This document shows positions 30,764-48,033 of a DNA stretch of 64,000 bases, piece by piece. Position numbers and translations under genes: made by a program. The first letter of the stretch is position 1, and each line of letters opens with the position of its first letter. Under the pieces are notes generated by a model, which worked only from the letters and a program-made list of their open reading frames with translations, did not search any database and had not been told where the DNA came from. The DNA is from Bacteroidota bacterium (GTDB lineage: Bacteria > Bacteroidota > Bacteroidia > Flavobacteriales > Flavobacteriaceae): NCBI GenBank assembly GCA_023434025.1, contig JAEYTL010000045.1, positions 1,892 to 65,891 of the forward strand, given 5' to 3'.

Positions 30764-32302
30764 ATGTCAAAAAAAGATATATTACTTGAAATTGAGGCAA
30801 AGAAAAAGCTCTACAGCTATCAGTTGGGTGATATTGATCTGATTTTTGATAAGATTCAGAATGCCCCGCACAATTATCATTTGCTTTATCAATTACCAAC
30901 CGGTGGAGGAAAAACCGTCATTTTTTCTGAAATCACCCGCCGTTATCTGGAAAAGTATGATAAAAAAGTAGTTGTGCTTACCCACCGTATCGAGTTGTGC
31001 AAGCAGACTTCTAAAATGTTGAAAGGGTTTGAAGTTAAAAATAAAATTATCAACAGCATTGTCAAAGAATTGCCGGATCAGGATGAATATTCCTGTTTTG
31101 TGGCCATGGTAGAGACCTTAAAAAACCGTCTCAATGATGAAAAACTGCACATTGATAATGTGGGTTTACTGATCATTGATGAAGCTCATTTTAATTCGTT
31201 CAGAAAGTTATTCCACGCCTTTAAAAACACTTTTTTTCTCGGTGTTACCGCCACACCGCTGAGCTCAAACATCAAATTGCCGATGAACGAGAATTACCAT
31301 GAACTGATTGTAGGGAACAGTATCGGTTCGTTGATAGACAAAGGTTATCTGGCTAAAGCAACAACATATAGCTATGATGTTGGACTTACCTCATTAAAAA
31401 TTGGAATCAACGGTGATTATACAGTTAAGTCGTCTGATGAGCTTTATACCAACATGGCTATGCAGGAAAAACTGATCCATGCTTATACGGCTCATTCGTT
31501 AGGCAAGAAAACATTAATTTTTAATAATGGAATCATAACCTCTCTGGGAGTTTTAGATGTTTTTAAGGAAGCCGGTTTCAGCCATATCAGGCATTTGGAT
31601 AATACACATTCCAATGAAGAGCGAAAAGAGATTCTGAAGTGGTTCAAAGATACGCCGGATGCTATTTTAACATCTGTAGGTATCCTGACAACGGGATTTG
31701 ATGAGCCTACTGTGGAATCAATTATTTTAAACCGGGCCACTAAATCATTGACACTTTATTTTCAGATGATAGGGAGGGGATCCAGAAAACTTCCGGACAA
31801 AGATGAATTCACAATCATTGACCTGGGGAATAATGCTGCACGGTTCGGACTCTGGACGGATAAAATGGATTGGCAGCATATTTTTAAATACCCGGAACAA
31901 TACATACACAACCTGAAAGGGGATGCAGAAATCGAAATGAATTTCTTTTACAAAATGCCTCCGGAATTACAGGCGAAGTTTAGTAATACAGCCGATTTGA
32001 CATTCGATGTTGAGTCGGAATACCGGACTGCTATTGCCAATAACCTTAGGCCTAAGGTTGTGATTGACAAATCAATAGATCATCATGCATTGATGTGTGT
32101 AGACAATGCCGAGACTCTGGTTGAAGCAAAACGCTTGGCCAGAGAGTTGTCTGATGATATTGAGAGTCGCGTACGTCATTTCACTAACTGTTTAAGTAAT
32201 TCTACCAAAAATTACCGTGATTGGTTGATTGATGATTACAAAACAAGACTTTTAATTGTCATTGGTCGAAAATTCAGAGAAAAACTGTTTTCGGACGAAT
32301 AA
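30764..32302 (+). CDS. SF2 DEAD/DEAH-box helicase (ResIII/SSL2-like) with a C-terminal extension
   Basis: Walker A PTGGGKT, motif II LLIIDEAHF, motif III-like GVTATP and motif VI QMIGRGSR. Confidence 0.85.
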   Translation: MSKKDILLEIEAKKKLYSYQLGDIDLIFDKIQNAPHNYHLLYQLPTGGGKTVIFSEITRRYLEKYDKKVVVLTHRIELCKQTSKMLKGFEVKNKIINSIVKELPDQDEYSCFVAMVETLKNRLNDEKLHIDNVGLLIIDEAHFNSFRKLFHAFKNTFFLGVTATPLSSNIKLPMNENYHELIVGNSIGSLIDKGYLAKATTYSYDVGLTSLKIGINGDYTVKSSDELYTNMAMQEKLIHAYTAHSLGKKTLIFNNGIITSLGVLDVFKEAGFSHIRHLDNTHSNEERKEILKWFKDTPDAILTSVGILTTGFDEPTVESIILNRATKSLTLYFQMIGRGSRKLPDKDEFTIIDLGNNAARFGLWTDKMDWQHIFKYPEQYIHNLKGDAEIEMNFFYKMPPELQAKFSNTADLTFDVESEYRTAIANNLRPKVVIDKSIDHHALMCVDNAETLVEAKRLARELSDDIESRVRHFTNCLSNSTKNYRDWLIDDYKTRLLIVIGRKFREKLFSDE

Positions 32303-32685: not shown

Positions 32686-34236
32686 ATGAGCAAAAAGCAC
32701 GACGTAATGTTAATTTTAGAAGGAACCTATCCTTTTAATGGCGGTGGAGTTTCTACTTGGGCACACATGCTTTGCAATGAAGTTAAAAATTCAAATTTTA
32801 CACTTTATTCCATCAATGCTGAGTTTGAATCTAAAACAAAATACAAGCTGAGTGATAATGTAAAAAACCTTATTCAGGTACCTTTATGGTCTCCTATGGA
32901 GCCCCAGGAGATGATTGATTACGGTAAAAAATATTATAAAATTATCTCTCTTAAAGAGAAAAATGACCTGGACAAAATTAACCAGGTTTTCATTCCTGTT
33001 TTTCAGGATTTACTGAGACATATTTTCTCTGCAAACAGAGATGTAAGGGCTTTTGATGAAACAATCCATAAAATGTGGCGTTATTTTCAAAAGCACGACT
33101 ACAAAAAAACAATGAAGAGCGAACCGGTTTGGCGTACATTCTGCTATATGGTTTCGGATCTGAATGCTGAACAGGAGAATGAGAAGGTGTCACTATTTGA
33201 CTTGACCTCCGGTATGCGTTGGATTTACCGATTTCTTATACCGCTTTCAGTTGATGTTCCGCGGGTTGATGTTTCTCATTTAACATTGTCCGGCTTTCCG
33301 GTAATTCCGGCTTTAGTATTGAAATACAAATACGGTACACCAATGATTGTAACGGAACATGGTGTTTTTATCCGTGAGCGTTTATTGGCAATCAATTCTT
33401 CTGAGTATTCTTTTTTCCTGAAAAAAATGTTGATTAAGTTTTCAGAATGTGTAACGGAACTGGTTTATTACAAAGCAGATAAAATATTGTCTGTGAACAA
33501 ATTCAACATTAAATGGGAAAAAATGTACGGAGCAGATCCGAACAAAATAGAGATCATTTACAATGGTATTGATCACAATGTATTTAAACCATTGCCAAAG
33601 CCGGAACATTTAAAAAATATTCCTACTGTTGTGGCGGCTGCCCGTATTTTTGATCTGAAAGATATTATCACGATGATAAAATCCTGTGCTGTGGCCAAAC
33701 GGCAGATACCTGCTATTCAGTATCTGGTCTATGGTGACAATAATGCCGTACCGGAATATACCGCTGCCTGTGAACGGTTAATCGATGAACTGGATTTGAG
33801 AGATAATTTCAAGTTAGCCGGCTACCATGAGAAACCCAGTGAACTTTTTTCAGAAGGTGATATTTCGATTTTAACCTCTATTTCGGAAGGATTTCCCTAT
33901 ACTGTTTTAGAATCAATGAGTTGCGGAATCCCGGTCGTAGCCACTGACGTTGGTGGTGTTACCGAGGCATTGGATGAATCATGCGGTTTTATCTGCAAAC
34001 CAAAAGACGCTGAAGAAATAGGAAATAGGGTAGTAGAGCTTCTTAATAACAAAGCGTTAAGAGAGCAAATGGGAATTAATGCCCGCAAAAAAGTAATAGA
34101 TAACTTTACGATTGGTAAATTTGTCAACGCTTATGAAGCTGTCTATGAAAGAATAGTAACCCGTGAAGTTAAAGAAGTACAAATGCCAATTTTAATCCCG
34201 TCTTTAAATGAAGTAGAATCTGTAAAAGCCTCATAA
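32686..34236 (+). CDS. PelF-like GT4 glycosyltransferase with an N-terminal DUF3492-type domain
   Basis: 516 aa. N-terminus ILEGTYPFNGGGVSTWAHML (DUF3492/PelF-type). GT4 catalytic core with an E-x7-E region: TSISEGFPYTVLESMSCGIPVVATDVGG. Confidence 0.8.
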   Translation: MSKKHDVMLILEGTYPFNGGGVSTWAHMLCNEVKNSNFTLYSINAEFESKTKYKLSDNVKNLIQVPLWSPMEPQEMIDYGKKYYKIISLKEKNDLDKINQVFIPVFQDLLRHIFSANRDVRAFDETIHKMWRYFQKHDYKKTMKSEPVWRTFCYMVSDLNAEQENEKVSLFDLTSGMRWIYRFLIPLSVDVPRVDVSHLTLSGFPVIPALVLKYKYGTPMIVTEHGVFIRERLLAINSSEYSFFLKKMLIKFSECVTELVYYKADKILSVNKFNIKWEKMYGADPNKIEIIYNGIDHNVFKPLPKPEHLKNIPTVVAAARIFDLKDIITMIKSCAVAKRQIPAIQYLVYGDNNAVPEYTAACERLIDELDLRDNFKLAGYHEKPSELFSEGDISILTSISEGFPYTVLESMSCGIPVVATDVGGVTEALDESCGFICKPKDAEEIGNRVVELLNNKALREQMGINARKKVIDNFTIGKFVNAYEAVYERIVTREVKEVQMPILIPSLNEVESVKAS

Positions 34237-34309: not shown

Positions 34310-35923
34310 ATGGAAAAGCATAGTGAAAATATAAAAATATTAATTGATAATGTAAAAGATAAAATAGGTAAGCCGGTCAGCAGCAGGGTTGTTGCCGCTA
34401 CTATCGAATCTTTTGGCATCAGGGATATTGATACGGAAGCCGATTACGGTGTTTCAGATATTCAGGACTTGGCTAATTATATTTACCGGCAACTCACGAC
34501 CTCTCTGGAGCATAAAGAGAGTTTGAATGCCAGGGAGCGTGAATATATTGAAACTAATCCGAAAACGATTCAGTTGTCGGATTACATGGCTGTCAAAGCT
34601 AAAATCTTTGCCCAATATTATCCGTTGGGAATTTTTCACTTACTTCCGGTTTTTCTTCAAATTGCGGCAATTGTTGTTTTTGGTTATTCGTTATGGACAC
34701 ACGTTCACTTTAACCACTTACAATCCACAGCCGTTGTTTTGGGGGTAATAATTGGTATTGTCTCTACCGGTGGATTTGTACAGGTTATTGGTCGTCAGGC
34801 TACTTTTTACTGGAATTACCACGATTATTCCATGACCAAAAAAACCATTGATTATTTATTAAAGTTGGGAATTAAGACACTTTTCACTGTTTTTGCAGTT
34901 ATTCTGTTTATTAATTTCTTTATTCATATTTACCCTTACAAAGTATTATTCATTGTTTTTACCTATGCCTTTCTGATTGGTGTACTTTTACTGGTTTTAG
35001 CACCATTGCATACTATCAGACAACGATGGATGATTACCATTTCGGTTATTTTAGGAACGCTGGTTACGGTGTTGCTAAACAAATTTTCTTCGTTACTAAT
35101 TTATTATACGCACTGGTTCGGAATCAGTATTGCTGTGATATCGGCTAAAACGTATTTGTATTTTTTCTTCCGTGGGCTTTTAAAGAAACATCCGCCTAAA
35201 GCAGATTTAAAAATTAAAACATCCGTTTTTATTTATCAGAATCACCGGTATTTTTTATACGGTGTTTGTATTTACCTGTTTATTTTTATCGACAGAATAC
35301 TGGCTTGGTCAACCACCAGTAAGGGACAGCTTCCTTTTCTGGTCTATTTTGAAAAAGATTATGAGTTGGGTATGGATATGGCTATTTTGGTTTTCTTACT
35401 GTTATCCGGTGTTTTAGAGTTCAGCATTGCTTCTTTTACACGCTTTCTGGACATTACGCAAAAATTAGTGCAGTTTGAAAACGCAAAGCTTTTTAACAAA
35501 GAGCTGTATAAATTATACTGGCAGAATATTCTTATTTTATTGGCTACTGCTACAGTTATTCTTGTCATTATCTATCAATTAATGTTTGCTCCATGGGGCT
35601 ACAAAGGCCAGTTTCATGAAGAACTGGCAACTTTGAGTGTAAAAGTAACTTATCTTGGAGGGCTGGGGTATTTTTTTCTGGCTTGGGGAATGCTTAATAC
35701 TTTATATTTGTTTACCTTGGGTCAAACAGAACAACCTTTGAAAGGAATCATTTATGCTATTGTGATTAACCTGACCATCGGGTTTGTTTTGAGCCGGTTT
35801 GTCAGTTTTGAATACAGTGTTGTGGGCATGTTGGCCGGAGCCTTGTTTTTTATGCTTTATACATTAAAACATATTTTCCGCTTTTTCAAAAAACTTGATT
35901 ATCACTATTATGCGTCGTTTTAA
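34310..35923 (+). CDS. polytopic membrane protein (about 12 TM) with an approximately 100-aa soluble N-terminal domain; candidate PelG-like exporter
   Basis: 537 aa. Hydrophobic helices run from about residue 100 to the end. It occupies the position immediately after the PelF-like gene, as pelG does in pel operons. The gene is confident; the PelG assignment rests on position and topology only. Confidence 0.55.
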   Translation: MEKHSENIKILIDNVKDKIGKPVSSRVVAATIESFGIRDIDTEADYGVSDIQDLANYIYRQLTTSLEHKESLNAREREYIETNPKTIQLSDYMAVKAKIFAQYYPLGIFHLLPVFLQIAAIVVFGYSLWTHVHFNHLQSTAVVLGVIIGIVSTGGFVQVIGRQATFYWNYHDYSMTKKTIDYLLKLGIKTLFTVFAVILFINFFIHIYPYKVLFIVFTYAFLIGVLLLVLAPLHTIRQRWMITISVILGTLVTVLLNKFSSLLIYYTHWFGISIAVISAKTYLYFFFRGLLKKHPPKADLKIKTSVFIYQNHRYFLYGVCIYLFIFIDRILAWSTTSKGQLPFLVYFEKDYELGMDMAILVFLLLSGVLEFSIASFTRFLDITQKLVQFENAKLFNKELYKLYWQNILILLATATVILVIIYQLMFAPWGYKGQFHEELATLSVKVTYLGGLGYFFLAWGMLNTLYLFTLGQTEQPLKGIIYAIVINLTIGFVLSRFVSFEYSVVGMLAGALFFMLYTLKHIFRFFKKLDYHYYASF

Positions 35924-36719
35924 TTTGTTTTTATGGCTTTTGCCGTCATTGTTAGCTACGCCTGTTTTCAGTAATACTGCAAATAAGAGTACTGTTTTGG
36001 TCTGTTACGGCAGACTGAACCCTGCTGCAATCAAAGGCTATAATTACGTTATTTTAGAAGAAAAAAACTTCAGGAAAGAAGAAATTCAGCAAATCAAGAA
36101 ACAGAATAAGAACGTTCTGGCCTACATCAGCTTAGGCGAAGTAAACAGTAATGCCAGACATTACAAGTTGTTAAAAAACAGGACATTAGGAAAAAACAAC
36201 AATTGGGACAGCCATTATCTGAATTTAAAGGATAGCACTACGTCGGTTGTCCTGATGACCTTGATAAAAAAAGTATTAGAAAAAGGTTTTGATGGTTTGT
36301 TTTTAGATAATATCGATAATTATTCGTCTTTTGGGCCTCAGGCTGCTCAGCGTAATGAGCTGGTTGACCTGATACAAAGAATTAAAAAGCAATATCCCAA
36401 TCATGTATTGGTTCAAAATGCCGGTTTAGAGTTGATTCCGGATACTAAAAATTATATCGAATCGGTTATGTTTGAATCGGTTGCAACAGATTATAGTTTT
36501 AAAGACAACACTTATAAGCTTCGGGAAAGTAATGATTTTAACGAACGGTTAAAGCGTATCAAAGCAGTTAATGACCAATATAAAATTCCCGTTCTGCTGA
36601 TTGAATATGCCAACAGTAAACAGCTTTTTGAGCACATCGTGAAACGGTTATCTGCTACCCGTTTTGAGTATTTTATAGGAAAAATAGATTTACAGTCTGT
36701 TCCCGATTTTACCAGATAA
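35910..36719 (+). CDS. secreted GH114/TM1410-like TIM-barrel glycosidase (endo-alpha-1,4-polygalactosaminidase / PelA-hydrolase / Ega3-like)
   Basis: Signal peptide MRRFNLFLWLLPSLLATPVFS. YISLGEV and GFDGLFLDNIDNY motifs are characteristic of the GH114/TM1410 family. The start at 35910 overlaps the upstream stop by 14 nt. Confidence 0.68.
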   Translation: MRRFNLFLWLLPSLLATPVFSNTANKSTVLVCYGRLNPAAIKGYNYVILEEKNFRKEEIQQIKKQNKNVLAYISLGEVNSNARHYKLLKNRTLGKNNNWDSHYLNLKDSTTSVVLMTLIKKVLEKGFDGLFLDNIDNYSSFGPQAAQRNELVDLIQRIKKQYPNHVLVQNAGLELIPDTKNYIESVMFESVATDYSFKDNTYKLRESNDFNERLKRIKAVNDQYKIPVLLIEYANSKQLFEHIVKRLSATRFEYFIGKIDLQSVPDFTR

Positions 36720-36721
36720 CC

Positions 36722-38692
36722 ATGATACTTTCCAGCTCCATATTAGTAGGTTTTATACGGCTCGTTTTGCTGCTGATGTTCTTGTATTATTGCAACAACA
36801 AGTTGGTCAAACGGGAGTATAGTCATAACCTGTTGCAATTTATTGTAAATGAATGGTTTAAGTACGGTAGTTTATCGTTGGTTGTTGTTTTTGTACTCAT
36901 TCAGTTCAGTGCTTACAGCCTCATCAACTATGTGCTTATTATGTCTTTTATCATAGTGGTAGATGTGGTGGGGATTAAAAACTTTAAAAACCCTGTCCGT
37001 TATTTTAAAGATACCGCAAAGTCACGCTTTTTTGAATTCCTGAAAAACAGTGAAAACAGAAAACCTGTTCGGGAACTTCTTCAGATGGAAAGACCTAAAA
37101 AGATAAAAGATGATCGTGTATTTATTTTTTATGCCGTATTGATTTTAATTATTATGGCCTTTGTTGGACGGTATTATTTTTATATTTATGATACATACCT
37201 GCTTTCAGATTTATGGGTGGCAAACCTGAATAAACTCATACTTTTTGATGAGAATACTTGGTTTGATGGTACTGTTTCGGTTGAAGGAGAGCTGGCTGTC
37301 AGCAACTTATATTCCAAATTAGTGGATGTTAGCCCGGAAGTAGGTTTGCAAAGTTTAGCAATTTTAGAAGATATCATACTGAGCCTGGTTGTTTTCTGGA
37401 CAATACGCAAGATTACTCCCTCCAGGGTTCTGGCTCCCATGATCGCTTTTCTTACCTATGTTTTTCTATACACCTTTTCACCTGTTGAAATTCATTACCT
37501 ATTGCAGAATGAACCTGTTTTGATGGGACTGACATTTGCAATACCTTGTATGGTCTATACCCTTAAACCGGATGCCATAAACTTTAAAAAGACCAATTAT
37601 TTCATCAGTTTAACCATTTGCTTTTTTGCCATTGGTTTAATCGATTTGTTTACCTTATTAATTCTGATGCCGCCGTTTTTCATCATCGCATTGGTGTTTG
37701 TAAACAAACATTATCTCTCATTCAAATGGCTTGCTCTTTCAGCCTATGTTATTGGAACAGGTAGTGTCTTGGCGATGTATTATATGATGTGTGATTATTA
37801 TCAGAATGATTTTTTAATCTTTCTGCAATCGAGTTTAATTTCGGTGACATCTTTTACCTATATGCCTAATTTGATTATACCGTTTGATGAATTGATTACG
37901 TATTACCAGTATGGGTCACTGTTCAGTATTATCATTTTGCCTTTTTTAATTTGGTATAAAAAAGAACCATGGAAACCTTCTTTGGTCTTTATGTTGTATT
38001 TTAATCTATTGGTAACCTTGAGTTTTATGCATGTGGAATGGATTGATACAGATTTGCTTCGTTTGGCACTGTCTGTTTTAATTCCGGTTTGTTTCGGAAT
38101 AACAGTAGCGGTTTTGCTGAGATTGCTGCAGCCGGCCTACAGGAAAGTACTTCAGTTTAAAATACCGATTGCCGTAGTGGTTTCATTGCTCGTCTTTGGC
38201 GGAATTTTATATTCACAAAAGGAACCGCTGAGCAATGTTAAAACCTCAGACAAAACCCCGCGGATGGTGTTGGATGCCTATGATGAAATTTTACACGAAT
38301 ATTTTCCATACAGTTATGCCGTGGTCAATGACAATATTGCTCAAACCATGAGTATAAATAAACATTTCTTTATCAATTATGAAGATTTTTTATTCAGCTA
38401 CCTGGAAAGTGATTCTATTTATCACCATAACAAGAAGAAGCCGAGGTTTTTTATTGAAAATCCGCAGTATGTAATCCCTAAGAGTGTTTTGGTGTTTGTG
38501 TACCATGACAATTCCGAAAAAGAAAATTATTTTGCCGATCAGAATCAGTTAGAACCGTTGCTGAAGGAGCATATCCAAACGTTGGAAAAAAGGGGGAGAA
38601 AGGTTTCGCTGTATTATGAAAGCCCCTTTGTAAACGTATATGAAATTGAAAACGAACCCAAATCAAGTAAGATTGATGACCTAATCTATTAA
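36722..38692 (+). CDS. large polytopic membrane protein with an approximately 150-aa C-terminal soluble domain, family unknown
   Basis: 656 aa, more than 12 hydrophobic segments, translationally coupled on both sides (2-nt gaps). No motif recognised. Confidence 0.75.
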   Translation: MILSSSILVGFIRLVLLLMFLYYCNNKLVKREYSHNLLQFIVNEWFKYGSLSLVVVFVLIQFSAYSLINYVLIMSFIIVVDVVGIKNFKNPVRYFKDTAKSRFFEFLKNSENRKPVRELLQMERPKKIKDDRVFIFYAVLILIIMAFVGRYYFYIYDTYLLSDLWVANLNKLILFDENTWFDGTVSVEGELAVSNLYSKLVDVSPEVGLQSLAILEDIILSLVVFWTIRKITPSRVLAPMIAFLTYVFLYTFSPVEIHYLLQNEPVLMGLTFAIPCMVYTLKPDAINFKKTNYFISLTICFFAIGLIDLFTLLILMPPFFIIALVFVNKHYLSFKWLALSAYVIGTGSVLAMYYMMCDYYQNDFLIFLQSSLISVTSFTYMPNLIIPFDELITYYQYGSLFSIIILPFLIWYKKEPWKPSLVFMLYFNLLVTLSFMHVEWIDTDLLRLALSVLIPVCFGITVAVLLRLLQPAYRKVLQFKIPIAVVVSLLVFGGILYSQKEPLSNVKTSDKTPRMVLDAYDEILHEYFPYSYAVVNDNIAQTMSINKHFFINYEDFLFSYLESDSIYHHNKKKPRFFIENPQYVIPKSVLVFVYHDNSEKENYFADQNQLEPLLKEHIQTLEKRGRKVSLYYESPFVNVYEIENEPKSSKIDDLIY

Positions 38693-38694
38693 GT

Positions 38695-41600
38695 ATGAAA
38701 ACCCGTGCTACCCTAAATCGATTAGCCATATGCAGCCTGATGGCCTTTGTGTTGATTTTTTCAAGCTGTGCCGACTTTGATGCGATAATAAACCCTGATA
38801 ATATTGATTTATTTTCAAAAGATCAGGCCGGAAAAAATGCATTATTAAAACACTACTCGGATACTGATTTAAATCTTCCGCCTTTGGTAGAATACATTGT
38901 AGATTTTGAAAATCCGATGAGTGTTAAGTACAGTAACCACCTCAAAAAGGTGTGTAATTATACCAAGATACCATTTAAGAACATCAACATCAAAGCATGG
39001 AATGCCAATCTGGAAATAGCTCCGTCCACCCGAGTCCTTTGTGTGCTGGAAACGAAGAAGCTAAATGATGCTTCTGTGGCAAAGCTTTTGAAATTTGTTT
39101 CAGACGGCGGTACACTTTACCTGCCGTATGCCTGTGAAGACAAGCGTTTTGGTTTTATGATCGGGATGAAAACAAATTCAGATTATGTAACCGATGTTAC
39201 TTCTGTGGGAATCCGTTTTAAGGAAAATTTTATTCCGACCCTGGCCGGAACTTCAACCCGGAAATCAATCATTCATTTTGGAATGAGCGGTGAAAATTTT
39301 GATATGACAAAGATTAAAGTTTATGCCACTTCCATTAATAATACGTCTTATCCATCTATTTTAGAGTGTCGGACAGGAAAAGGGAGGGTGATTAACCTGA
39401 ACTCGACGTTTGAACTGGAAAAAATGGACAGAGGTATACTGTTTTCAGGCATGATGATGGGATTAGAGGGAATCCCTTATCCGATAGCCAATACCAGTAC
39501 TGTTTTTTTAGACGATTTTCCTTCTCCGCTTTATGATACAAAAATGGAGCCTATTAAATCCGAAATGAACCTTTCTATCTCTGATTTTGTAAAAAATGTA
39601 TGGTGGCCCGATATGAAGGATTTGGCCAAAAAATACCAGATCAGTTATACGGCTGTTCCGGCTTTTGACTACAATGCCAAGACAGATCCGCCGTTTCTTT
39701 TCAGTCAATGGGATGCCAAAAAAATTTCAAGTGGCGGTAAGGTAGAACCCATCAGCAGTTGGTTGATGCGGGATTGTATTAAAAACGGGCACGAGCTGGG
39801 ATTTCATGGTTATAACCACGTTTCTTTGGTAAAAAGAGACTGGAAGAAGCCTGAATTTATTGTGACGGCACTCGAAGGCGTTCAGAAAAAATGGAAAGTG
39901 AGTAATTTTGGTAATTTACCGGTTTCCTATGTACCTCCGTCAAATTATATCGATCAGATGGGATTGAAAAGGCTTAAAGAAGGGTTGCCCTCTATTAGTT
40001 TTATGTGCAGCTTGTATTTGGGAGAAACCTATGATGGCGGAAACAGGGAATTTGATTTTGATCCCTATCATCACGGCATGTTTGATTATCCACGGATTTC
40101 AAGCGGATTTGAAATAGATGATGATTCAAAATACAACATTCAATCGATGTATCTGTACACCGGTATCTGGAATCATTTTGTGCACCCGGATGATGTATAC
40201 CAGATTCCGAGTCCGTTTAACAAAAGTGCCGGTGATTTCGACCTTCGGAATGCAAAAGGATTGGGCTGGCGTAAAACAAAAGGGAAGTCCGGAGGCTTAT
40301 TGGCAGAACTGGATAAATATTTTAAAGAATTTACCACGGCTTTTCCGCAATCAAGGTTTTTAAATGCCGGAGAAGGAGGGTTTATCGCCTTAGACTGGAG
40401 AGCGTCAAAATTCAACCATAAAACAAATGACGGAAAATATATTGTAGAAGAACTGAATCCTGATAATTCAATGTCCAACAGCCAGTACTGGTTTCTTTAC
40501 GGATCAGCTGAAAATGCAGAAAATATTGAATACCAGTTAAAATCAATTGCCGTAATTTATTCAAAGACAAGCTATTTAAACGGATTTTTATACTCTGTTT
40601 ACACCAATGAACCCGTTATTAAAATTAAAGATTACCGCGAATACAGAAACAAAGAGCTGGATTTTATTTTCAGTAAAGTACAAAATGATTACTACACTTA
40701 TCTAGTGAAAGTTAAAGAATTTGAACAAGGGGAGGAGAGTAGTGAGAATTATGAAGAGCAGATCCGGTTGGAAAAAGCGGCCTTGAAACAGCGTATGCTT
40801 TCCGAAGCTGTAATTGATTATCCTACCTGGAACAAATATGCCGAATACATGTCATGGGAAAGCAAAGAAAATGAGGTCTGGACCATGCTTGAAAAGCATT
40901 GTGCCAAATACCCGACCAAACATAATGTGATGTATGCCCAGGAATTAGACAAAATAATCGGTTATCCGAATGATCTCGCCATGGAAAAGTGGATGAGTGC
41001 CCAATTATTGGTTAACCCGAGAGATAAAGATTTGTTAAACAGCTATGTGGCGAATTTTAATACCCCGGAGAACAACGAAAAAATCAAACAGGCATTAATT
41101 GCACTTTTGGGTGTTGACACCGGTAAGCAAAGTATGTTTAACTATCTTCAGCACCTGTTATGGTATGAACCTCAAAATGCATTGACAGAACTGGAAAAGA
41201 TAGAGCCGTCTGATGATTACAGGGAATTGGCAACCAACATTACGTGGCTTTATGCCAACGAAAAAAATTATCAGAAAGCGTATGACTGGTCATTTTACAG
41301 CAACGAAATTGATATAGCCAGTAAAATGGAATGGCTTTTTCAGTTGAAGCAATATGATAACCTGATCGGGGAATACAATTCGTATATTGAAAAAAATCCT
41401 GACGATTATAAAACAAAGGCTTTGATGGCTAATTATTACCACGATATGGGTAAATTTAAAGAAGCATGGATTTTGGCCGGCGAATTGCCGGAATCAAAAG
41501 AAAAAGAATCACTCAGAAAGGCCCTTAATGCAGATGTAATTTACCAGGATGATTTTCTGCAACAGGATTTACTGGCTAATTATCCGGAATTGTTTTTAGA

Positions 41601-42618
41601 CAATGTCCGAATGGCTGTTACCAAAACCAACCGCTTAAAATACGGTAATTTTATTGAATCTGAGAACGAGATTCAAACTAACAGAGACAGGACAGCCTCT
41701 TTAACAACTCGGCATTCGTATAATTTTTATGATAAGAAAAAGAACCTGCACCGTTTTGCGGCCACCTACTCAGAATTTTTCCCGCTCATCCGGTCAACGG
41801 TTGATACCATCGTGATTGACCTGCGTATGCAAAACAGGGAGGAGAATGAAGCATTAATCATCTCGGATGACAATAAATTCACAAGAGTATATGGGGTTGA
41901 ATACCAATATAAAAACCCGTTTTCATTTGAAAAGTTTCAGTATTGGTCAAGAATCAGGTTTGAAATGGACAATTATCAGCAGGCTTATTTTCAATTTGGA
42001 GCCGGTGTAAACAAAACATTCAGAAAAAATTTCAGTTCCGCTCAGGTAAATGTATTTCCGGTGCAAACAGCACCCGGTCATGCCAAAGAAATTTACCACG
42101 TTCAATCTGTTTTGTACCAGAGTGTTTATTGGATGAAAAAAATCAATATTACTTTGGGGATTGAATCTAATTATTACACGAAAAGCAAGTATAATACCGA
42201 TTTTATTACGGATAATAACATTGATATTTCTGCTACTTTACGGGTTGGCTGGGATGATGGCGAAGAGAAGAAATCCAGGTTCATACCGTTTCTGGAATCG
42301 TCTGTTCAGACAGGTTCTGCCGACTTGAGTGACGGTTACCCGTATTGGATGCTGGATAAACGTTTATTTGGCGGGGGCGGACTAAGCTATAGCTACGGTC
42401 TGGAAGCCAATGATTTTAAAGCAAAATTAGAAGCAGCCTATTTTTTTGATGATTATGCCGATCAGTTTCAGCGTTTTTCCGGTACCGTTTCTTACCGGTT
42501 GTTCAATTATACTGCTTTAGTTGCTGCATTTGAAATTTTCAATCAGGATAAATTCTACTCAAACACAGTTCAGTTCGGGTTAAAGCACAGTTTTAAAGAA
42601 AAAAACAGAGTTAAATAA
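38695..42618 (+). CDS. 1307-aa lipoprotein fusing a DUF2194/CE4-CE18-like polysaccharide deacetylase region, TPR-like repeats and a C-terminal beta-barrel-like region
   Basis: Lipobox IFSSC. Deacetylase-like metal triad candidates FLDDFPSP and GHELGFHGYNH. Middle helical repeats (for example EYNSYIEKNPDDYKTKALMANYYHDMGKFKEAW). The last approximately 330 aa have alternating hydrophobic and aromatic beta-strand patterns (VSYRLFNYTALVAAFEIF, TVQFGLKHSF). Confidence 0.72.
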   Translation: MKTRATLNRLAICSLMAFVLIFSSCADFDAIINPDNIDLFSKDQAGKNALLKHYSDTDLNLPPLVEYIVDFENPMSVKYSNHLKKVCNYTKIPFKNINIKAWNANLEIAPSTRVLCVLETKKLNDASVAKLLKFVSDGGTLYLPYACEDKRFGFMIGMKTNSDYVTDVTSVGIRFKENFIPTLAGTSTRKSIIHFGMSGENFDMTKIKVYATSINNTSYPSILECRTGKGRVINLNSTFELEKMDRGILFSGMMMGLEGIPYPIANTSTVFLDDFPSPLYDTKMEPIKSEMNLSISDFVKNVWWPDMKDLAKKYQISYTAVPAFDYNAKTDPPFLFSQWDAKKISSGGKVEPISSWLMRDCIKNGHELGFHGYNHVSLVKRDWKKPEFIVTALEGVQKKWKVSNFGNLPVSYVPPSNYIDQMGLKRLKEGLPSISFMCSLYLGETYDGGNREFDFDPYHHGMFDYPRISSGFEIDDDSKYNIQSMYLYTGIWNHFVHPDDVYQIPSPFNKSAGDFDLRNAKGLGWRKTKGKSGGLLAELDKYFKEFTTAFPQSRFLNAGEGGFIALDWRASKFNHKTNDGKYIVEELNPDNSMSNSQYWFLYGSAENAENIEYQLKSIAVIYSKTSYLNGFLYSVYTNEPVIKIKDYREYRNKELDFIFSKVQNDYYTYLVKVKEFEQGEESSENYEEQIRLEKAALKQRMLSEAVIDYPTWNKYAEYMSWESKENEVWTMLEKHCAKYPTKHNVMYAQELDKIIGYPNDLAMEKWMSAQLLVNPRDKDLLNSYVANFNTPENNEKIKQALIALLGVDTGKQSMFNYLQHLLWYEPQNALTELEKIEPSDDYRELATNITWLYANEKNYQKAYDWSFYSNEIDIASKMEWLFQLKQYDNLIGEYNSYIEKNPDDYKTKALMANYYHDMGKFKEAWILAGELPESKEKESLRKALNADVIYQDDFLQQDLLANYPELFLDNVRMAVTKTNRLKYGNFIESENEIQTNRDRTASLTTRHSYNFYDKKKNLHRFAATYSEFFPLIRSTVDTIVIDLRMQNREENEALIISDDNKFTRVYGVEYQYKNPFSFEKFQYWSRIRFEMDNYQQAYFQFGAGVNKTFRKNFSSAQVNVFPVQTAPGHAKEIYHVQSVLYQSVYWMKKINITLGIESNYYTKSKYNTDFITDNNIDISATLRVGWDDGEEKKSRFIPFLESSVQTGSADLSDGYPYWMLDKRLFGGGGLSYSYGLEANDFKAKLEAAYFFDDYADQFQRFSGTVSYRLFNYTALVAAFEIFNQDKFYSNTVQFGLKHSFKEKNRVK

Positions 42619-42619
42619 A

Positions 42620-42656
42620 AAATGATGAAGTACTCATGATATGTACTTCATCATTT
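42620..42656. terminator. bidirectional rho-independent terminator
   Basis: AAATGATGAAGTAC-TCATGATAT-GTACTTCATCATTT followed by ATTTTTTTT. It lies between convergent genes that end at 42618 and 42680. Confidence 0.75.
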
Positions 42657-42679
42657 ATTTTTTTAGATGATGCTTAAGA

Positions 42680-44326
42680 TTAATGTTTTACAATAAATCT
42701 TCTGGAATCATGTATTTGCCCGTTATCAAACTGAATAAAATAAACACCGTTTGTCAGGGCCTGTGTATCAAAAATTACTTTATTGCCGTTTTGGTTCATA
42801 CTTAGTTTGATCTGCTGACCCAATGAGTTGTAAACGGCAAAGTTGTATGCAGAGGCATCATCCATTTCAACCATCAGTTCATGATCTGCCGGAACCGGAT
42901 GAAGCACAACTTTTAACCGGTTGGCATCTGCTATACCGAGTGTTTCGCTGATAATCAGTTTATGGTTCAGGCGGTTGTATCCTGTTGAAGATTCCCACAC
43001 GTTGTTATTGGCAAAACGAATAGCATATTCCGGTTTGTTGGCCAGCGATTCATAGATATCCGGTAAATGCAGATACATGTCATACGTTCCGGGAATGATT
43101 CCTTCCGGCAGGCTGAGGTTTTCGGTAACCGTAAATTCATCCTGCCAATTTCTAGGGTCAGATTCCATCATTATCGAGAATACTTGGTTTGTGGCCGTAT
43201 TTTTTAAAACGATATAGGCATTTCGTTCGTTAAACGGAGCGGCATAACCGACATTGTTTATATTTAACGTTACGGATAATTGACTGTTCAGGGGAATACT
43301 TTGCGGAAGAACGGCACTGGTAAGCTGAAAACGGTAACCTAAATTCTTCTGAATTTCCTGATAGCAATCGCCGGTCTGCCAACCGTTAATAACACTCGGA
43401 TGATAATCTAAATTAAGATAGGACCAATGAAATTTAGCCATTTCAAATTGAGCTGTTGCACAGTTTGTTCTCGATTCAAAAACCGCACAGGTCTCGCCAC
43501 CCATAGGTACATAGCGGGTTTCCTGATCAAGGTAAGGATATTCGGTGTTTACGTTGGTGTAGGTACCCACATCGGTATTGCTCGATAAAAAGCAATCGTT
43601 ATGGTGGCCAATTCTGGCCAGGCTGGTGTTGGTATACGCCTGACTTGGCGGCAGAGGAGCGGCAGTATTATACATTTGCTGCTTCATTTTCGGATAACGT
43701 ATCTGCAGAGATCTTGAACTCGGCAATGCGTTCAGAATAGCATCTGTAATATCTTTCCGATGGGCATAATTTGCAGAAGTCAGGTTGGTCTGGTTGTAGC
43801 CCCAGCCTCCAAATTCCGACTGGCCGGTGTAATACCATTCTCCCCAAGCTCCTATAAAGCCGGCCTGCATTACGGCAATAACATCCGCATTGGCAATTAA
43901 CAAAGGTTTGATCTGATTAATGTGTTCAAGCATTCTTGTTTTGGTTGCATCTAAAACAACCCCGCTTCCATAGTCATCAGAATAAGCAAACCGGATAACA
44001 GCTTTTAAACCGGCATTACGGATCCTGTTAAAATCAGTCTGCATATTATTCAGATAAGATTGCGAAATGGAAGTATTAATAAAATCTTTTAAATAAAAAT
44101 ACCTGAAAATCAATGTAATGTTCTGATTGACACGGTAGTTTGTTAATGATGACTGGTTTAAAAGATTGTAACTACTCGAAGAGGATGATTCGGTATCACT
44201 GTACTTATAAAATCCGCGTTCAGGATTTGGAAAGTTAGCACTCGATGCGGTGTAAGTCACTGTAGTCGTCTGTGCACCCCCGTATAGAAACAGAAGAGCA
44301 CCCAAAAAGGTAAATACTTTTCTCAT
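42680..44326 (-). CDS. T9SS-secreted DUF4874/DUF4832-like putative glycoside hydrolase
   Basis: 548 aa with a signal peptide. TIM-barrel-like core with GFIGAWGEWYYTG and HHNDCF. The C-terminal approximately 80 aa resemble a T9SS sorting domain (HPVPADHELMVEM ... NGVYFIQFDNG ... RRFIVKH). Confidence 0.72.
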   Translation of the reverse strand: MRKVFTFLGALLFLYGGAQTTTVTYTASSANFPNPERGFYKYSDTESSSSSSYNLLNQSSLTNYRVNQNITLIFRYFYLKDFINTSISQSYLNNMQTDFNRIRNAGLKAVIRFAYSDDYGSGVVLDATKTRMLEHINQIKPLLIANADVIAVMQAGFIGAWGEWYYTGQSEFGGWGYNQTNLTSANYAHRKDITDAILNALPSSRSLQIRYPKMKQQMYNTAAPLPPSQAYTNTSLARIGHHNDCFLSSNTDVGTYTNVNTEYPYLDQETRYVPMGGETCAVFESRTNCATAQFEMAKFHWSYLNLDYHPSVINGWQTGDCYQEIQKNLGYRFQLTSAVLPQSIPLNSQLSVTLNINNVGYAAPFNERNAYIVLKNTATNQVFSIMMESDPRNWQDEFTVTENLSLPEGIIPGTYDMYLHLPDIYESLANKPEYAIRFANNNVWESSTGYNRLNHKLIISETLGIADANRLKVVLHPVPADHELMVEMDDASAYNFAVYNSLGQQIKLSMNQNGNKVIFDTQALTNGVYFIQFDNGQIHDSRRFIVKH

Positions 44327-45307: not shown

Positions 45308-45415
45308 TAGCCACAGATGCACAGATAATTAAAAAATAAGTTTAAACCACTTTATGGAATCTGCAAAATATATTTTAACAGATAAAAGCATAAAAAGTCT
45401 GTGTATCTGTGGCTA
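45308..45415. repeat. 18-bp inverted repeat (17/18 match) separated by 72 nt
   Basis: TAGCCACAGATGCACAGA (45308-45325) and TCTGTGTATCTGTGGCTA (45398-45415). The single mismatch would be a G:U pair in RNA. Confidence 0.6.
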
Positions 45416-45519
45416 AAATAATTATCCGAAGCACAGCATTTTTTAAAATGTCGCAGAGCAATTTTTTTTATCAGGGGATCATAACCATCAGGTGTGTAAC
45501 CTATTTGAATTTTCAATAC

Positions 45520-45945
45520 ATGAAGAAAAACATTGAACAAAAATTAATAGATAAACATACTAAACCAACCAGTATGCGGATTCTGGTTTATGATTACCTG
45601 AACTCTCAAAAGGTAGCTTTATCTTTATCTGAAATCGAAAATCATTTTGAATATGCAGATCGAATAACAATTTATCGAACCCTTAAAACATTCGAAGAAA
45701 AAGGAATTGTTCATAGCATTCAGGAAAATAATACCTCAAAATATATTTTGTGTCACGACGGATGTGATGAAAAAACACATAAAGACTGGCATTTACATTT
45801 TTATTGTAAAATCTGTAAACAAACCACTTGTAAAGAAGATATTTCGCTGCCTGACCATTTGAAAGCTAATTTCAGAATTGATGAAGTCCGGCTTTTTGCA
45901 AAAGGAATTTGTGAGAATTGTTTAAAGGAAGAAGAATTGCAATAG
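45520..45945 (+). CDS. Fur family metal-responsive transcriptional regulator (Zur/Fur-like)
   Basis: I moved the start to the ATG at 45520 (MKKNIEQ). Winged helix KPTSMRILVYDYL ... ITIYRTLKTFEEKGIVHSI. Structural zinc cysteines CKICK and CENC. Confidence 0.85.
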   Translation: MKKNIEQKLIDKHTKPTSMRILVYDYLNSQKVALSLSEIENHFEYADRITIYRTLKTFEEKGIVHSIQENNTSKYILCHDGCDEKTHKDWHLHFYCKICKQTTCKEDISLPDHLKANFRIDEVRLFAKGICENCLKEEELQ

Positions 45946-45965
45946 TGTTGCACCTTTTTTGACTG

Positions 45966-45973
45966 TAATTTTG
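45966..45973 (+). promoter_or_regulatory. candidate -7 promoter box (TAATTTTG)
   Basis: Matches TAnnTTTG, 21 nt upstream of the ATPase ATG at 45994. Confidence 0.35.
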
Positions 45974-45993
45974 CCTCAAATAAATTCAAAGTT

Positions 45994-48033
45994 ATGACAC
46001 ATCAACATACATATGACAAAGACGGGAAACAGCTTTGCTGTACTCAGGAGGAAAAAATCTATACCCGGGCAGGAGCCGAAAATCTTTTGAAAGGAAATCA
46101 TGAGCACGATGGACACGATCATTCGCACAGTAATGATGACGGACATGATCACGATCATTCCGGCTTTGAAGGAAATGCTTTCAAATTGTTTTTACCTTCG
46201 GTTATTTCACTTGTTTTATTGTTGCTGGGAATTGCTTTTGACAACTGGATTCCTCAGGAATGGTTCTCAGGTTGGATACGAATTGTCTGGTATGTTTTAG
46301 CTTATATTCCGGTTGGAATTCCCGTTCTGAAAGAAGCTCTTGAAAGCATCCGAAAAGGAGATGTTTTCTCGGAATTTTTCCTGATGGGAATAGCAACCAT
46401 CGGAGCTTTTGCTATCGGAGAATATCCCGAAGCTGTTGCGGTAATGTTGTTTTATGCAGTAGGAGAGGTGTTCCAAACGTTGGCTGTTTCAAGGGCTAAA
46501 TCAAATATTAAATCATTACTTGACCAAAGGCCGGATGAAGTAATAATTTTAGAAAATGATAATCCAAAAACAGTAAAAGCTGAATCGGTAAATATCGGAG
46601 ATATCATTCAACTCAAACCGGGAGAAAAACTGGGATTAGACGGAGAACTATTATCCGAAAACGCATCGTTCAATACTTCAGCACTTACAGGAGAAAGCAA
46701 GCCTGATACCAAACAAAAAGGAGAAACGGTTTTAGCAGGAATGATAAACCTGAATACCGTAAGTCAGGTAAAAGTAACAACAGCTTATCAGGATAGTAAA
46801 TTGAGTAAAATTTTGGAATTGGTTCAGAATGCGACTTCTCAAAAAGCACCAACCGAATTATTCATCCGAAAATTTGCCCGAATTTACACTCCGATTGTAG
46901 TGATTTTAGCCGTTGGAATCTGTTTGTTACCTTATTTTTTTGTAGCAGAATATTCGTTTACTACTTGGTTGTACAGAGCACTTATTTTCTTGGTAATTTC
47001 GTGTCCTTGTGCTTTGGTAATTTCGATTCCATTAGGATATTTCGGAGGAATTGGAGCTGCTTCACGAAACGGAATTCTATTCAAAGGAAGTAACTTTTTA
47101 GATGTTTTAGCTAATATCCAAAATGTGGTAATGGATAAAACAGGAACAATGACCGAGGGTGTTTTTCAGGTTCAGGAAGTGAATTTCGGTTCGGAATTCG
47201 ATAAAGATGAAATCCTGAAAATGGTGAATAGTTTAGAAAGTCATAGTACGCATCCTGTAGCTACTGCAATCCATCATTTTGTTGGAGAAATCAACCATTC
47301 TGTCGAACTTAAAAATACCGAAGAAATTGCAGGACACGGACTTAAATCGACCATAAACGGAAAAAATTTATTAGTAGGAAATTTCAAATTAATAGATAAA
47401 TTCGGAATTAAATATGATCTGGATCCGAATGATATTGTGTACACAATCATTGCAGTTGCTTATGACAACAAGTTTGTGGGATACATAACTATTGCAGACA
47501 ACATCAAAGAAGATTCGCAACGTACCATTGATAAACTGAAATCTTTGAATGTAAAGCCAACCATGTTAAGCGGAGATAAAAGTACGGTTGTCAAACACAT
47601 AGCAGAAATATTGGAAATTCCGACTGCTTTTGGAGATTTGCTTCCGGAAGATAAAGTCAATAAGGTAAAAGAAATCAAAGCCAAAGGAGAAAGCGTAGCT
47701 TTTGTGGGAGATGGAGTGAATGATGCACCGGTTGTAGCATTAAGTGATGTCGGGATTGCCATGGGAGGATTAGGAAGCGATGCAACTATTGAAACAGCAG
47801 ATGTGGTGATTCAGGATGACAAACCAAGTAAAATACCGATGGCTATCCATATTGGAAAACAAACTAAAAAGATTGTCTGGCAAAATATTGGACTGGCTTT
47901 TGGAGTAAAAGCCATTGTTTTAGTTCTAGGAGCCGGAGGATTAGCTACCATGTGGGAAGCTGTTTTTGCAGATGTCGGAGTGGCACTTTTAGCCATTATG
48001 AATGCGGTCAGAATTCAGCGAATGAAGTTTTAA
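45994..48033 (+). CDS. P1B-type heavy-metal-translocating ATPase (Zn/Cd/Co-type) with a His-rich N-terminus
   Basis: CPC in a TM helix (VISCPCALVIS), DKTGTMTEG, SHSTHP, GDGVNDAP. The N-terminus HEHDGHDHSHSNDDGHDHDH plus a CC pair replaces a classical CxxC HMA domain. Confidence 0.92.
   Translation: MTHQHTYDKDGKQLCCTQEEKIYTRAGAENLLKGNHEHDGHDHSHSNDDGHDHDHSGFEGNAFKLFLPSVISLVLLLLGIAFDNWIPQEWFSGWIRIVWYVLAYIPVGIPVLKEALESIRKGDVFSEFFLMGIATIGAFAIGEYPEAVAVMLFYAVGEVFQTLAVSRAKSNIKSLLDQRPDEVIILENDNPKTVKAESVNIGDIIQLKPGEKLGLDGELLSENASFNTSALTGESKPDTKQKGETVLAGMINLNTVSQVKVTTAYQDSKLSKILELVQNATSQKAPTELFIRKFARIYTPIVVILAVGICLLPYFFVAEYSFTTWLYRALIFLVISCPCALVISIPLGYFGGIGAASRNGILFKGSNFLDVLANIQNVVMDKTGTMTEGVFQVQEVNFGSEFDKDEILKMVNSLESHSTHPVATAIHHFVGEINHSVELKNTEEIAGHGLKSTINGKNLLVGNFKLIDKFGIKYDLDPNDIVYTIIAVAYDNKFVGYITIADNIKEDSQRTIDKLKSLNVKPTMLSGDKSTVVKHIAEILEIPTAFGDLLPEDKVNKVKEIKAKGESVAFVGDGVNDAPVVALSDVGIAMGGLGSDATIETADVVIQDDKPSKIPMAIHIGKQTKKIVWQNIGLAFGVKAIVLVLGAGGLATMWEAVFADVGVALLAIMNAVRIQRMKF

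Follow-up and report, generated by a model that had tools for sequence, protein, structure and literature searches.

Background

To our knowledge, modification of the polymer and its export are handled by separate proteins in every biofilm system that has been studied. Efficient modification and export in the Pel, poly-N-acetylglucosamine (PNAG) and alginate systems depend on docking of the modifying enzyme on the tetratricopeptide repeat (TPR) scaffold of the porin. Here we describe a gene whose predicted product carries enzyme, scaffold and porin in one chain. It lies at 38695-42618 (+ strand) in a stretch of 64,000 nucleotides (the window) from a Bacteroidota bacterium of the Flavobacteriaceae (GenBank assembly GCA_023434025.1, contig JAEYTL010000045.1, positions 1,892 to 65,891 of the forward strand). 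At a probability of roughly 0.75, we interpret this deacetylase-TPR-porin fusion as the single chain that both modifies and exports the polymer in a Pel-type, synthase-dependent exopolysaccharide system found specifically in Bacteroidota and Balneolaceae.

The docking of enzyme on porin has been described for PelA, which must bind TPRs 9-15 of PelB and whose deacetylase activity rises upon docking (PMC12022489); published work has shown that PgaB acts with PgaA likewise. PelB, PgaA and the cellulose exporter BcsC all have a 16-strand barrel, and in PelB a stabilising helix, Plug-I, sits between strands 7 and 8 (PMC12141448). The nearest described relative of the enzyme part of the fusion is PelA_DA of Bacillus cereus. 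Work of 2026 established that it de-N-acetylates oligomers of alpha-1,4-linked N-acetylgalactosamine (GalNAc) in a metal-dependent manner and is needed for Pel biofilms; its structure is PDB entry 9ZAU, and it is the founding member of the CAZy families CE26 and CBM114 (PMC13254593). The epsSMASH preprint classed all of the Flavobacterium exopolysaccharide clusters that it found as uncharacterised pathways. Its pel-like families occur in Hyphomicrobiaceae, in a group spanning Pseudomonadota, Acidobacteriota, Chlamydiota and Verrucomicrobiota, and in Verrucomicrobiales.

The gene and the conservation of its architecture

The gene is a single open reading frame (ORF) of 1307 amino acids with an ATG start, and the opposite strand has stops throughout. 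A first-pass annotation, made from the letters alone, had described the product as one lipoprotein with deacetylase-like, TPR-like and barrel-like parts, and had allowed that a sequencing frameshift might have joined two or three genes. We rejected a frameshift or mis-assembly because homologues keep the same length across 45-99% identity and 80 genomes; the ORF is one intact gene. The closest 120 of more than 120 homologue clusters cover that range of identity and measure 1206-1328 amino acids, and their source names are "DUF2194 domain-containing protein" or "hypothetical protein", nothing else. When one genome of each GTDB species was scanned, at least 568 loci proved to encode relatives, and in the best 80, which were examined, complete ORFs are 1230-1372 amino acids long, save for two: a truncated one of 1085 (locus L025) and one of 1630 (locus L072).

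These best 80 loci come from Flavobacterium, Tenacibaculum, Maribacter, Cellulophaga, Salegentibacter, Nonlabens and Roseivirga, and include Balneolaceae (Fodinibius, Gracilimonas and others). The nearest relatives among them are those of Flavobacterium sp. AC1.7 (88%) and Flavobacterium piscinae (87%); Flavobacterium columnare and Flavobacterium davisii are also carriers. An exhaustive phmmer search with residues 630-1307 matched 112 of 1.84 billion cluster representatives. The full-length matches are mostly 1240-1370 amino acids, with a few up to 1820, and the match begins past the first 600-1000 residues; DUF2194 was carried by all that were tested (36/36). Homologues with the same three-part architecture, the search for which the first-pass annotation had proposed as a check, are found widely. 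Stand-alone relatives of the TPR and barrel were also sought in this exhaustive search and none was convincing, the shorter matches having no signal peptides and resembling fragments from contig edges. Judged from these comparisons, the TPR-barrel module is known only fused to a DUF2194 deacetylase, and the fusion is conserved across Bacteroidota.

Some distant homologues depart from the common size. Five proteins (P0184, P0199, P0204, P0209 and P0230) and the product of locus L072 reach about 1580-1820 amino acids, and one protein each in the distant set tested matched a SPOR, a CarboxypepD_reg and a NOMO-like domain. In another, P0136 (905 amino acids), the lipoprotein N-terminus, CBM-like domain, TPR and barrel are kept and most of the esterase core is apparently gone; either degeneration of this copy or an error of assembly may be the cause.

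The lipoprotein N-terminus and the deacetylase unit

Two alignments were used to judge conservation: a near one of 45 Flavobacterium homologues, and a distant one of 36 full-length homologues at 24-40% identity. The only hydrophobic segment of the fusion protein is at residues 10-28. It forms a predicted signal peptide with the lipobox IFSSC (residues 1-25, 38695-38769, +), which the first-pass annotation had already noted; Cys25 is invariant in the near alignment and at least 90% conserved in the distant one, and a signal peptide with the Cys is found in most orthologues across the 80 loci. Gram-positive members of the PelA_DA type begin with a transmembrane helix by which the enzyme is kept at the cytoplasmic membrane and at PelG, and in its place this protein has a signal peptide ending in the conserved lipobox Cys. 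It is a predicted outer-membrane lipoprotein, the choice of membrane being one that we infer. An acidic tether (residues 26-64, 38770-38886, +; isoelectric point 4.2) follows the presumably lipidated Cys and appears disordered, with a predicted local distance difference test score (pLDDT) below 50 for model residues 1-26.

The unit beyond the tether (residues ~65-643) belongs to the PelA_DA family (DUF2194; CBM114 plus CE26), as judged by its sequence and catalytic residues. Pfam DUF2194 matches residues 75-585 with an E value of 2.5e-65, and DUF2334 and Polysacc_deac_1 match below threshold. As a single sequence, residues 62-502 match 9ZAU at E 4e-38, and the family profile does so at E 8e-75 over positions 29-561; 9ZAU is the one solved relative of the N-terminal half, and identity to B. 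cereus PelA_DA is modest. An AlphaFold2 model of residues 24-643 (mean pLDDT 87, predicted TM-score 0.88) shows the disordered tether followed by an alpha/beta/alpha domain, then a deacetylase barrel and finally a beta-rich domain. Foldseek matched it to GH42-type alpha/beta/alpha domains, to the deacetylase 3rxz and to PelA (9cgy); 9ZAU was not among the matches from the library, which covers entries released by 8 April 2026.

The first of these domains (residues ~65-264, 38887-39486, +) is predicted to be CBM114-like from its alignment to the N-terminal domain of 9ZAU and from the Foldseek matches to the alpha/beta/alpha domain of GH42 enzymes, and has pLDDT above 90. The same GH42-type likeness has been published for PelA_DA (PMC7890745, PMC13254593). 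The second (residues ~265-570, 39487-40404, +) is the predicted CE26-type de-N-acetylase domain, assigned from DUF2194, 9ZAU and the Foldseek matches 3rxz and 9cgy. A beta-rich domain (residues ~571-643, 40405-40623, +), with strands at model residues 549-614 and pLDDT of about 90 or higher, would close the PelA_DA-like unit, its counterpart being the C-terminal beta-sandwich of PelA_DA (PMC13254593).

The active-site residues were placed by alignment to 9ZAU together with the residue numbering in PMC13254593. All of the following positions are on the + strand. The catalytic base D262 of B. cereus PelA_DA corresponds to D273, and the metal ligands D263, H350 and H354 to D274 (D273/D274, 39511-39516), H371 (39805-39807) and H375 (39817-39819). 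The base-positioning R458 corresponds to R467 (40093-40095), the catalytic acid H488 to H497 (40183-40185) and the acid activator D491 to D500 (40192-40194). D273 and D274, the Asp pair of FLDDFPSP singled out in the first-pass annotation, are invariant in both alignments, and all catalytic and metal residues are invariant or at least 90% conserved. An inactive deacetylase domain was rejected as an explanation, every catalytic residue being conserved, and the unit is a predicted active de-N-acetylase.

Two details of the earlier description were only partly right. In the His pattern H-x4-H-x3-H that it read in GHELGFHGYNH, H371 and H375 do form the HxxxH metal motif (H350/H354 in 9ZAU), but H366 has no ligand as its counterpart in 9ZAU, where the third ligand corresponds to D274. 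Similarly, the N-terminus is indeed related to polysaccharide de-N-acetylases, but of the CBM114 plus CE26 (PelA_DA) type rather than CE4 or CE18.

The TPR scaffold and beta-barrel

The C-terminal half (residues 630-1307) was modelled by AlphaFold2 with a mean pLDDT of 87 as 19 helices followed by 16 beta-strands, and in this model it is a TPR superhelix leading into a 16-strand exporter-type barrel. The helices extend over residues 647-983 and, with the linker, make up a TPR-like scaffold (residues 644-985, 40624-41649, +), in good agreement with the helical middle of about 650-950 that had been estimated from the letters. No Pfam TPR model matches the sequence of the fusion protein on its own, and the family profile matches consensus TPR proteins at E 4e-16. 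Foldseek paired the TPR part with the TPR regions of BcsC and also with CTPR and OGT TPR proteins.

The predicted outer-membrane barrel (residues 986-1299, 41650-42591, +) corresponds to the C-terminal ~330 amino acids in which a beta pattern had been seen earlier. Residues of the strands alternate between hydrophobic and polar, most strands have pLDDT above 90, and a short helix lies between strands 7 and 8. The barrel is followed by a short basic tail, KEKNRVK, and the stop codon (42592-42618, +). With the TPR and barrel modelled together, the top Foldseek matches among solved structures are BcsC, PgaA and PelB, which are known exporters of synthase-dependent polysaccharides: BcsC 9b8h (E 2e-8), 9b8a and 6tzk (E 2e-6), the PgaA barrel 4y25 (TM-score 0.70, normalised to the target), and PelBC 9h80_M (E 1e-4). 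The superhelix, the barrel and the deacetylase-like fold, for which the first-pass annotation had proposed a structure prediction as a check, all appear in the models, and we hold the domain assignments themselves with high confidence.

The operon

The fusion gene is the last of five genes on the + strand that appear to form an operon, because the junctions are tight, a terminator hairpin follows and the five-gene order is conserved. The first gene (32686-34236) encodes the glycosyltransferase PelF, which scores 173 bits against the NCBIfam equivalog NF038011 (cut-off 100), matches Pfam DUF3492 and GT4, and is syntenic in related loci. After a gap of 73 nt comes a gene for a divergent PelG-like inner-membrane protein (34310-35923) with at least 10 transmembrane segments. 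Its match to Pfam PelG is weak (E 0.016, over the whole profile), and 8/23 of its orthologues match PelG, the best at E 2e-11. The PelF and PelG core of the canonical Pel system is present, with a weak match to PelG in this protein itself. The third gene, which overlaps the second by 29 nt, encodes a predicted secreted GH114-type hydrolase (35895-36719; Pfam GH114 E 2e-22) whose best solved relatives are PelA hydrolase domains (PDB 5tcb, E 1e-15).

Gaps of 2 nt lie on either side of the fourth gene (36722-38692), the stop of which is 2 nt ahead of the start of the fusion gene. It encodes a polytopic membrane protein of 656 amino acids, for which at least 9 transmembrane segments are predicted and which ends in a soluble domain of 159 amino acids. 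No relative was found in Pfam, NCBIfam, PDB single-sequence or PDB profile searches, and wherever a related locus has enough flank, the gene lies immediately upstream of the fusion gene. Downstream of the fusion gene, a hairpin with 12-bp arms and a T-run (42622-42665), read from the sequence, is a likely terminator shared with a convergent gene. Among the best 80 loci, all of those with enough flank keep the five-gene order, across several families.

Other features of the operon genes were noted. The PelG-like protein has a conserved extension of about 105 amino acids (34310-34624, +) ahead of its first predicted transmembrane segment, with the consensus KIGKPVS..VV.ATIES.GIR.ID. Pfam has no match to the extension, which might act as a regulatory module where PelD is lacking. 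The 656-amino acid protein is a candidate replacement for PelD/PelE or a candidate periplasm-spanning partner. In operons of Balneolaceae, one more gene stands between pelG and the gene for the GH114 enzyme. In L076 (5451-7076) it encodes a protein of 541 amino acids with HD and HD_5 (HD-GYP-like) domains, and a gap of about 1.6 kb is also seen at this position in L064, L069 and L073-L080. The HD-GYP-like gene hints at nucleotide second-messenger control in the Balneolaceae branch.

Proposed mechanism and alternatives

Taken together, these features suggest how the system may work. PelF would polymerise a GalNAc-rich chain in the cytoplasm, and the divergent PelG, probably with the 656-amino acid membrane protein, would carry it over the inner membrane. 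In the periplasm, the lipid-anchored N-terminal unit (CBM114-like domain, CE26 domain and beta-sandwich) would bind the chain and partly de-N-acetylate it, using a metal site of D274, H371 and H375, D273 as the base positioned by R467, and H497 as the acid activated by D500. The covalently attached TPR-like superhelix would then hand the now cationic chain to the 16-strand barrel for passage across the outer membrane, and the separate GH114 enzyme would trim or release the polymer. The covalent link would take the place of the non-covalent binding by which PelA docks on the PelB TPRs, or PgaB on PgaA, and the N-terminal acyl anchor that of the transmembrane helix of Gram-positive PelA_DA. A barrel with an even number of strands has both of its ends in the periplasm; therefore the TPR and enzyme unit is most simply placed there, given the 16 strands of the model. 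The domains and the operon, with its PelF, PelG and PelA-hydrolase-like products, support what the first-pass annotation had proposed, namely that modification may be hard-wired to export in one polypeptide anchored in the outer membrane.

Several results weigh against this reading. Sequence similarity of the TPR and barrel to PelB, PgaA or BcsC was detected neither by Pfam, nor by phmmer over the 1.84 billion representatives, nor by a profile search of PDB sequences (E up to 10). The C-terminal half was accordingly rejected as a detectable sequence homologue of these exporters; the fold alone matches, and therefore the relationship is one of fold and arrangement, not of demonstrated homology. 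Moreover, a search of the five operon genes found no small PelC-like lipoprotein. These two results would fit a barrel that is a mere membrane anchor for a periplasmic or surface enzyme, with the polymer leaving elsewhere or another envelope glycan as the substrate. The best structural matches, BcsC, PgaA and PelB, nonetheless share the TPR-then-barrel order, the operon has no other outer-membrane component and the module is confined to this operon context. We therefore regard the mere-anchor explanation as extremely improbable, and infer that export takes place through the barrel.

The same search of the operon found no GAF, GGDEF or TPR inner-membrane protein that would represent PelD, the receptor for cyclic diguanylate (c-di-GMP), or PelE, and the lumen of the barrel, as estimated, is not clearly anionic like that of PelB or of PgaA, both of which carry cationic polymers: by a crude and uninformative phase-based estimate from the strand sequences, the lumen-facing charge is approximately neutral (net -2). 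It could be argued from these points, from the great divergence of PelG (E 0.016), from the unrelated 656-amino acid protein and from the modest identity to B. cereus PelA_DA that the architecture and mechanism are as we propose while the polymer is not Pel, the system making, deacetylating and exporting a different N-acetylated polysaccharide specific to Bacteroidota. However, PelF lies above the NCBIfam equivalog threshold, the best match of the companion hydrolase is the endo-alpha-1,4-N-acetylgalactosaminidase domain of PelA, and the only characterised CE26 enzyme, PelA_DA, acts on alpha-1,4-GalNAc (PMC13254593). A non-Pel polymer is thus unlikely, though it deserves to be kept in view, and a Pel-type polymer is the identity that we favour.

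Finally, the roughly 9 TPR-like repeats of the AlphaFold2 model are probably too short to span the periplasm, and the operon has no PelC, PelD or PelE to account for periplasm crossing and the control of synthesis. Alternatively, the lipid anchor might stay in the inner membrane: the polypeptide would bridge the envelope, with the deacetylase beside PelG and the barrel in the outer membrane. There are precedents of a kind, in that the N-terminal helix of B. cereus PelA_DA has been modelled against PelG (PMC13254593) and PelB of Pseudomonas aeruginosa is now thought to carry an N-terminal inner-membrane helix (PMC12022489), and the operon shows no other periplasm-spanning component. Even so, the 39-residue tether together with about 9 repeats would probably fall short of this distance. 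We know of no inner-membrane retention signal in Bacteroidota, which also counts against such an anchor, and these bacteria have LolA and LolB to carry lipoproteins to the outer membrane (PMC11885536). An inner-membrane anchor is accordingly quite improbable in our estimation, and we continue to place the lipid in the outer membrane as the preferred assignment.

Novelty and significance

The deacetylase-TPR-porin fusion appears to be undescribed. No description of the three-part architecture was found in the literature searched, which left out much subscription-journal content; it is not in an operon survey of biofilm machineries (PMC7112194), nor in the paper and the review on Gram-positive Pel, the papers on the structures of PelA and PelA_DA or the epsSMASH preprint. 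The first-pass annotation, which did not recognise the architecture as described, was right to this extent, but the fusion of an enzyme to a porin has a precedent in BcsZ-BcsC of Zymomonas (PMC7112194).

A broader proposal, for which we consider the chances evenly balanced, is that Bacteroidota and Balneolaceae possess a distinct third type of Pel machinery, beside those of Proteobacteria (pelABCDEFG) and of monoderms (pelDEA_DAFG). Here a CE26 deacetylase of the monoderm type would be joined covalently to its own TPR-porin, the whole being an outer-membrane lipoprotein; PelC, PelD and PelE would be dispensed with, and the 656-amino acid protein and the PelG extension would take over assembly and regulation without the usual receptor for c-di-GMP. 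Such a type would have been missed by current operon-mining tools although it is found in F. columnare and Tenacibaculum.

The covalent link between enzyme and porin provides a natural test of the docking model, with the stoichiometry fixed at 1:1, and having both in one polypeptide would allow structural study of the route that leads from the active site by way of the TPR groove into the barrel. Pel-type machinery would also be new to the phylum, as Pel in Bacteroidota was not reported in the literature searched. Carriers include F. columnare and Tenacibaculum, important aquaculture pathogens in which little is known of the genes for the biofilm matrix. A Pel core in an operon without PelC, PelD and PelE raises testable questions about regulation that lacks a c-di-GMP receptor. 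There is also an evolutionary pointer, in that the deacetylase is of the type common to monoderm Pel systems and not of the proteobacterial one.

Neighbouring genes

The G+C content of the region is 0.32-0.44 and the operon stretch shows no separate block; a signal of horizontal transfer for the operon was considered and rejected on these grounds. The convergent gene that shares the likely terminator (42680-44326, -) encodes a protein with DUF4874 and DUF4832 and, at the C-terminus, a sorting domain for type IX secretion. The gene adjoins the operon in the Flavobacterium clade, not in other genera, and its product could be an enzyme that is secreted and has the same polymer as its substrate. 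Directly upstream of pelF and on the same strand is a gene for a ResIII/DEAD-type helicase (30764-32302, +), kept in this position in most Flavobacterium loci at 70-93% identity and probably an unrelated neighbour. Farther downstream, some 3 kb past the operon, lie the genes for a Fur-family regulator and, after it, a P-type (E1-E2) ATPase (45409-48033, +), likely a metal-homeostasis pair.

Comparison with known systems

The N-terminal unit compares most closely with B. cereus PelA_DA, with which it shares, as far as the predicted fold shows, an alpha/beta/alpha CBM, a distorted (beta/alpha)7 esterase domain and a beta-sandwich. The catalytic set (D-D, HxxxH, R, H, D) is also the same, and both proteins are encoded with pelF and pelG and with a separate PelA-hydrolase-like gene nearby. 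In contrast, PelA_DA has about 610 amino acids, an N-terminal transmembrane helix and nothing past the beta-sandwich, whereas the fusion protein has a lipoprotein signal in place of the helix and about 660 additional amino acids of TPR and barrel. The pelD and pelE genes of the B. cereus operon are not in the operon of the window.

With PelA, PelB and PelC of P. aeruginosa the system shares its logic, a TPR scaffold that carries a deacetylase and runs into a 16-strand barrel, as well as the PelF/PelG core; the model also places its helix between strands 7 and 8 at the position of Plug-I (PMC12141448). P. aeruginosa PelA, however, belongs to CE21, carries a fused GH166 hydrolase and binds PelB non-covalently, and PelB, which begins with an inner-membrane helix, has 19 TPRs and requires a ring of 12 PelC subunits. 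The system in the window has no detectable similarity to PelB, about 9 predicted repeats, no PelC in the operon and a hydrolase encoded separately.

PgaB and PgaA of Escherichia coli likewise set a lipid-anchored deacetylase beside a TPR-porin of similar size, and the barrel part reaches its best TM-score (0.70) against the barrel of PgaA. They are two polypeptides, however, with a CE4 enzyme acting on beta-1,6-linked N-acetylglucosamine and PgaCD as the synthase. The nearest precedent for the fusion itself is BcsZ-BcsC of Zymomonas (PMC7112194), in which a periplasmic polymer-processing enzyme is also fused to the TPR-porin of a synthase-dependent system; there the fused enzyme is a hydrolase rather than a deacetylase, the system is that of cellulose and the fusion is reported for a narrow taxon.

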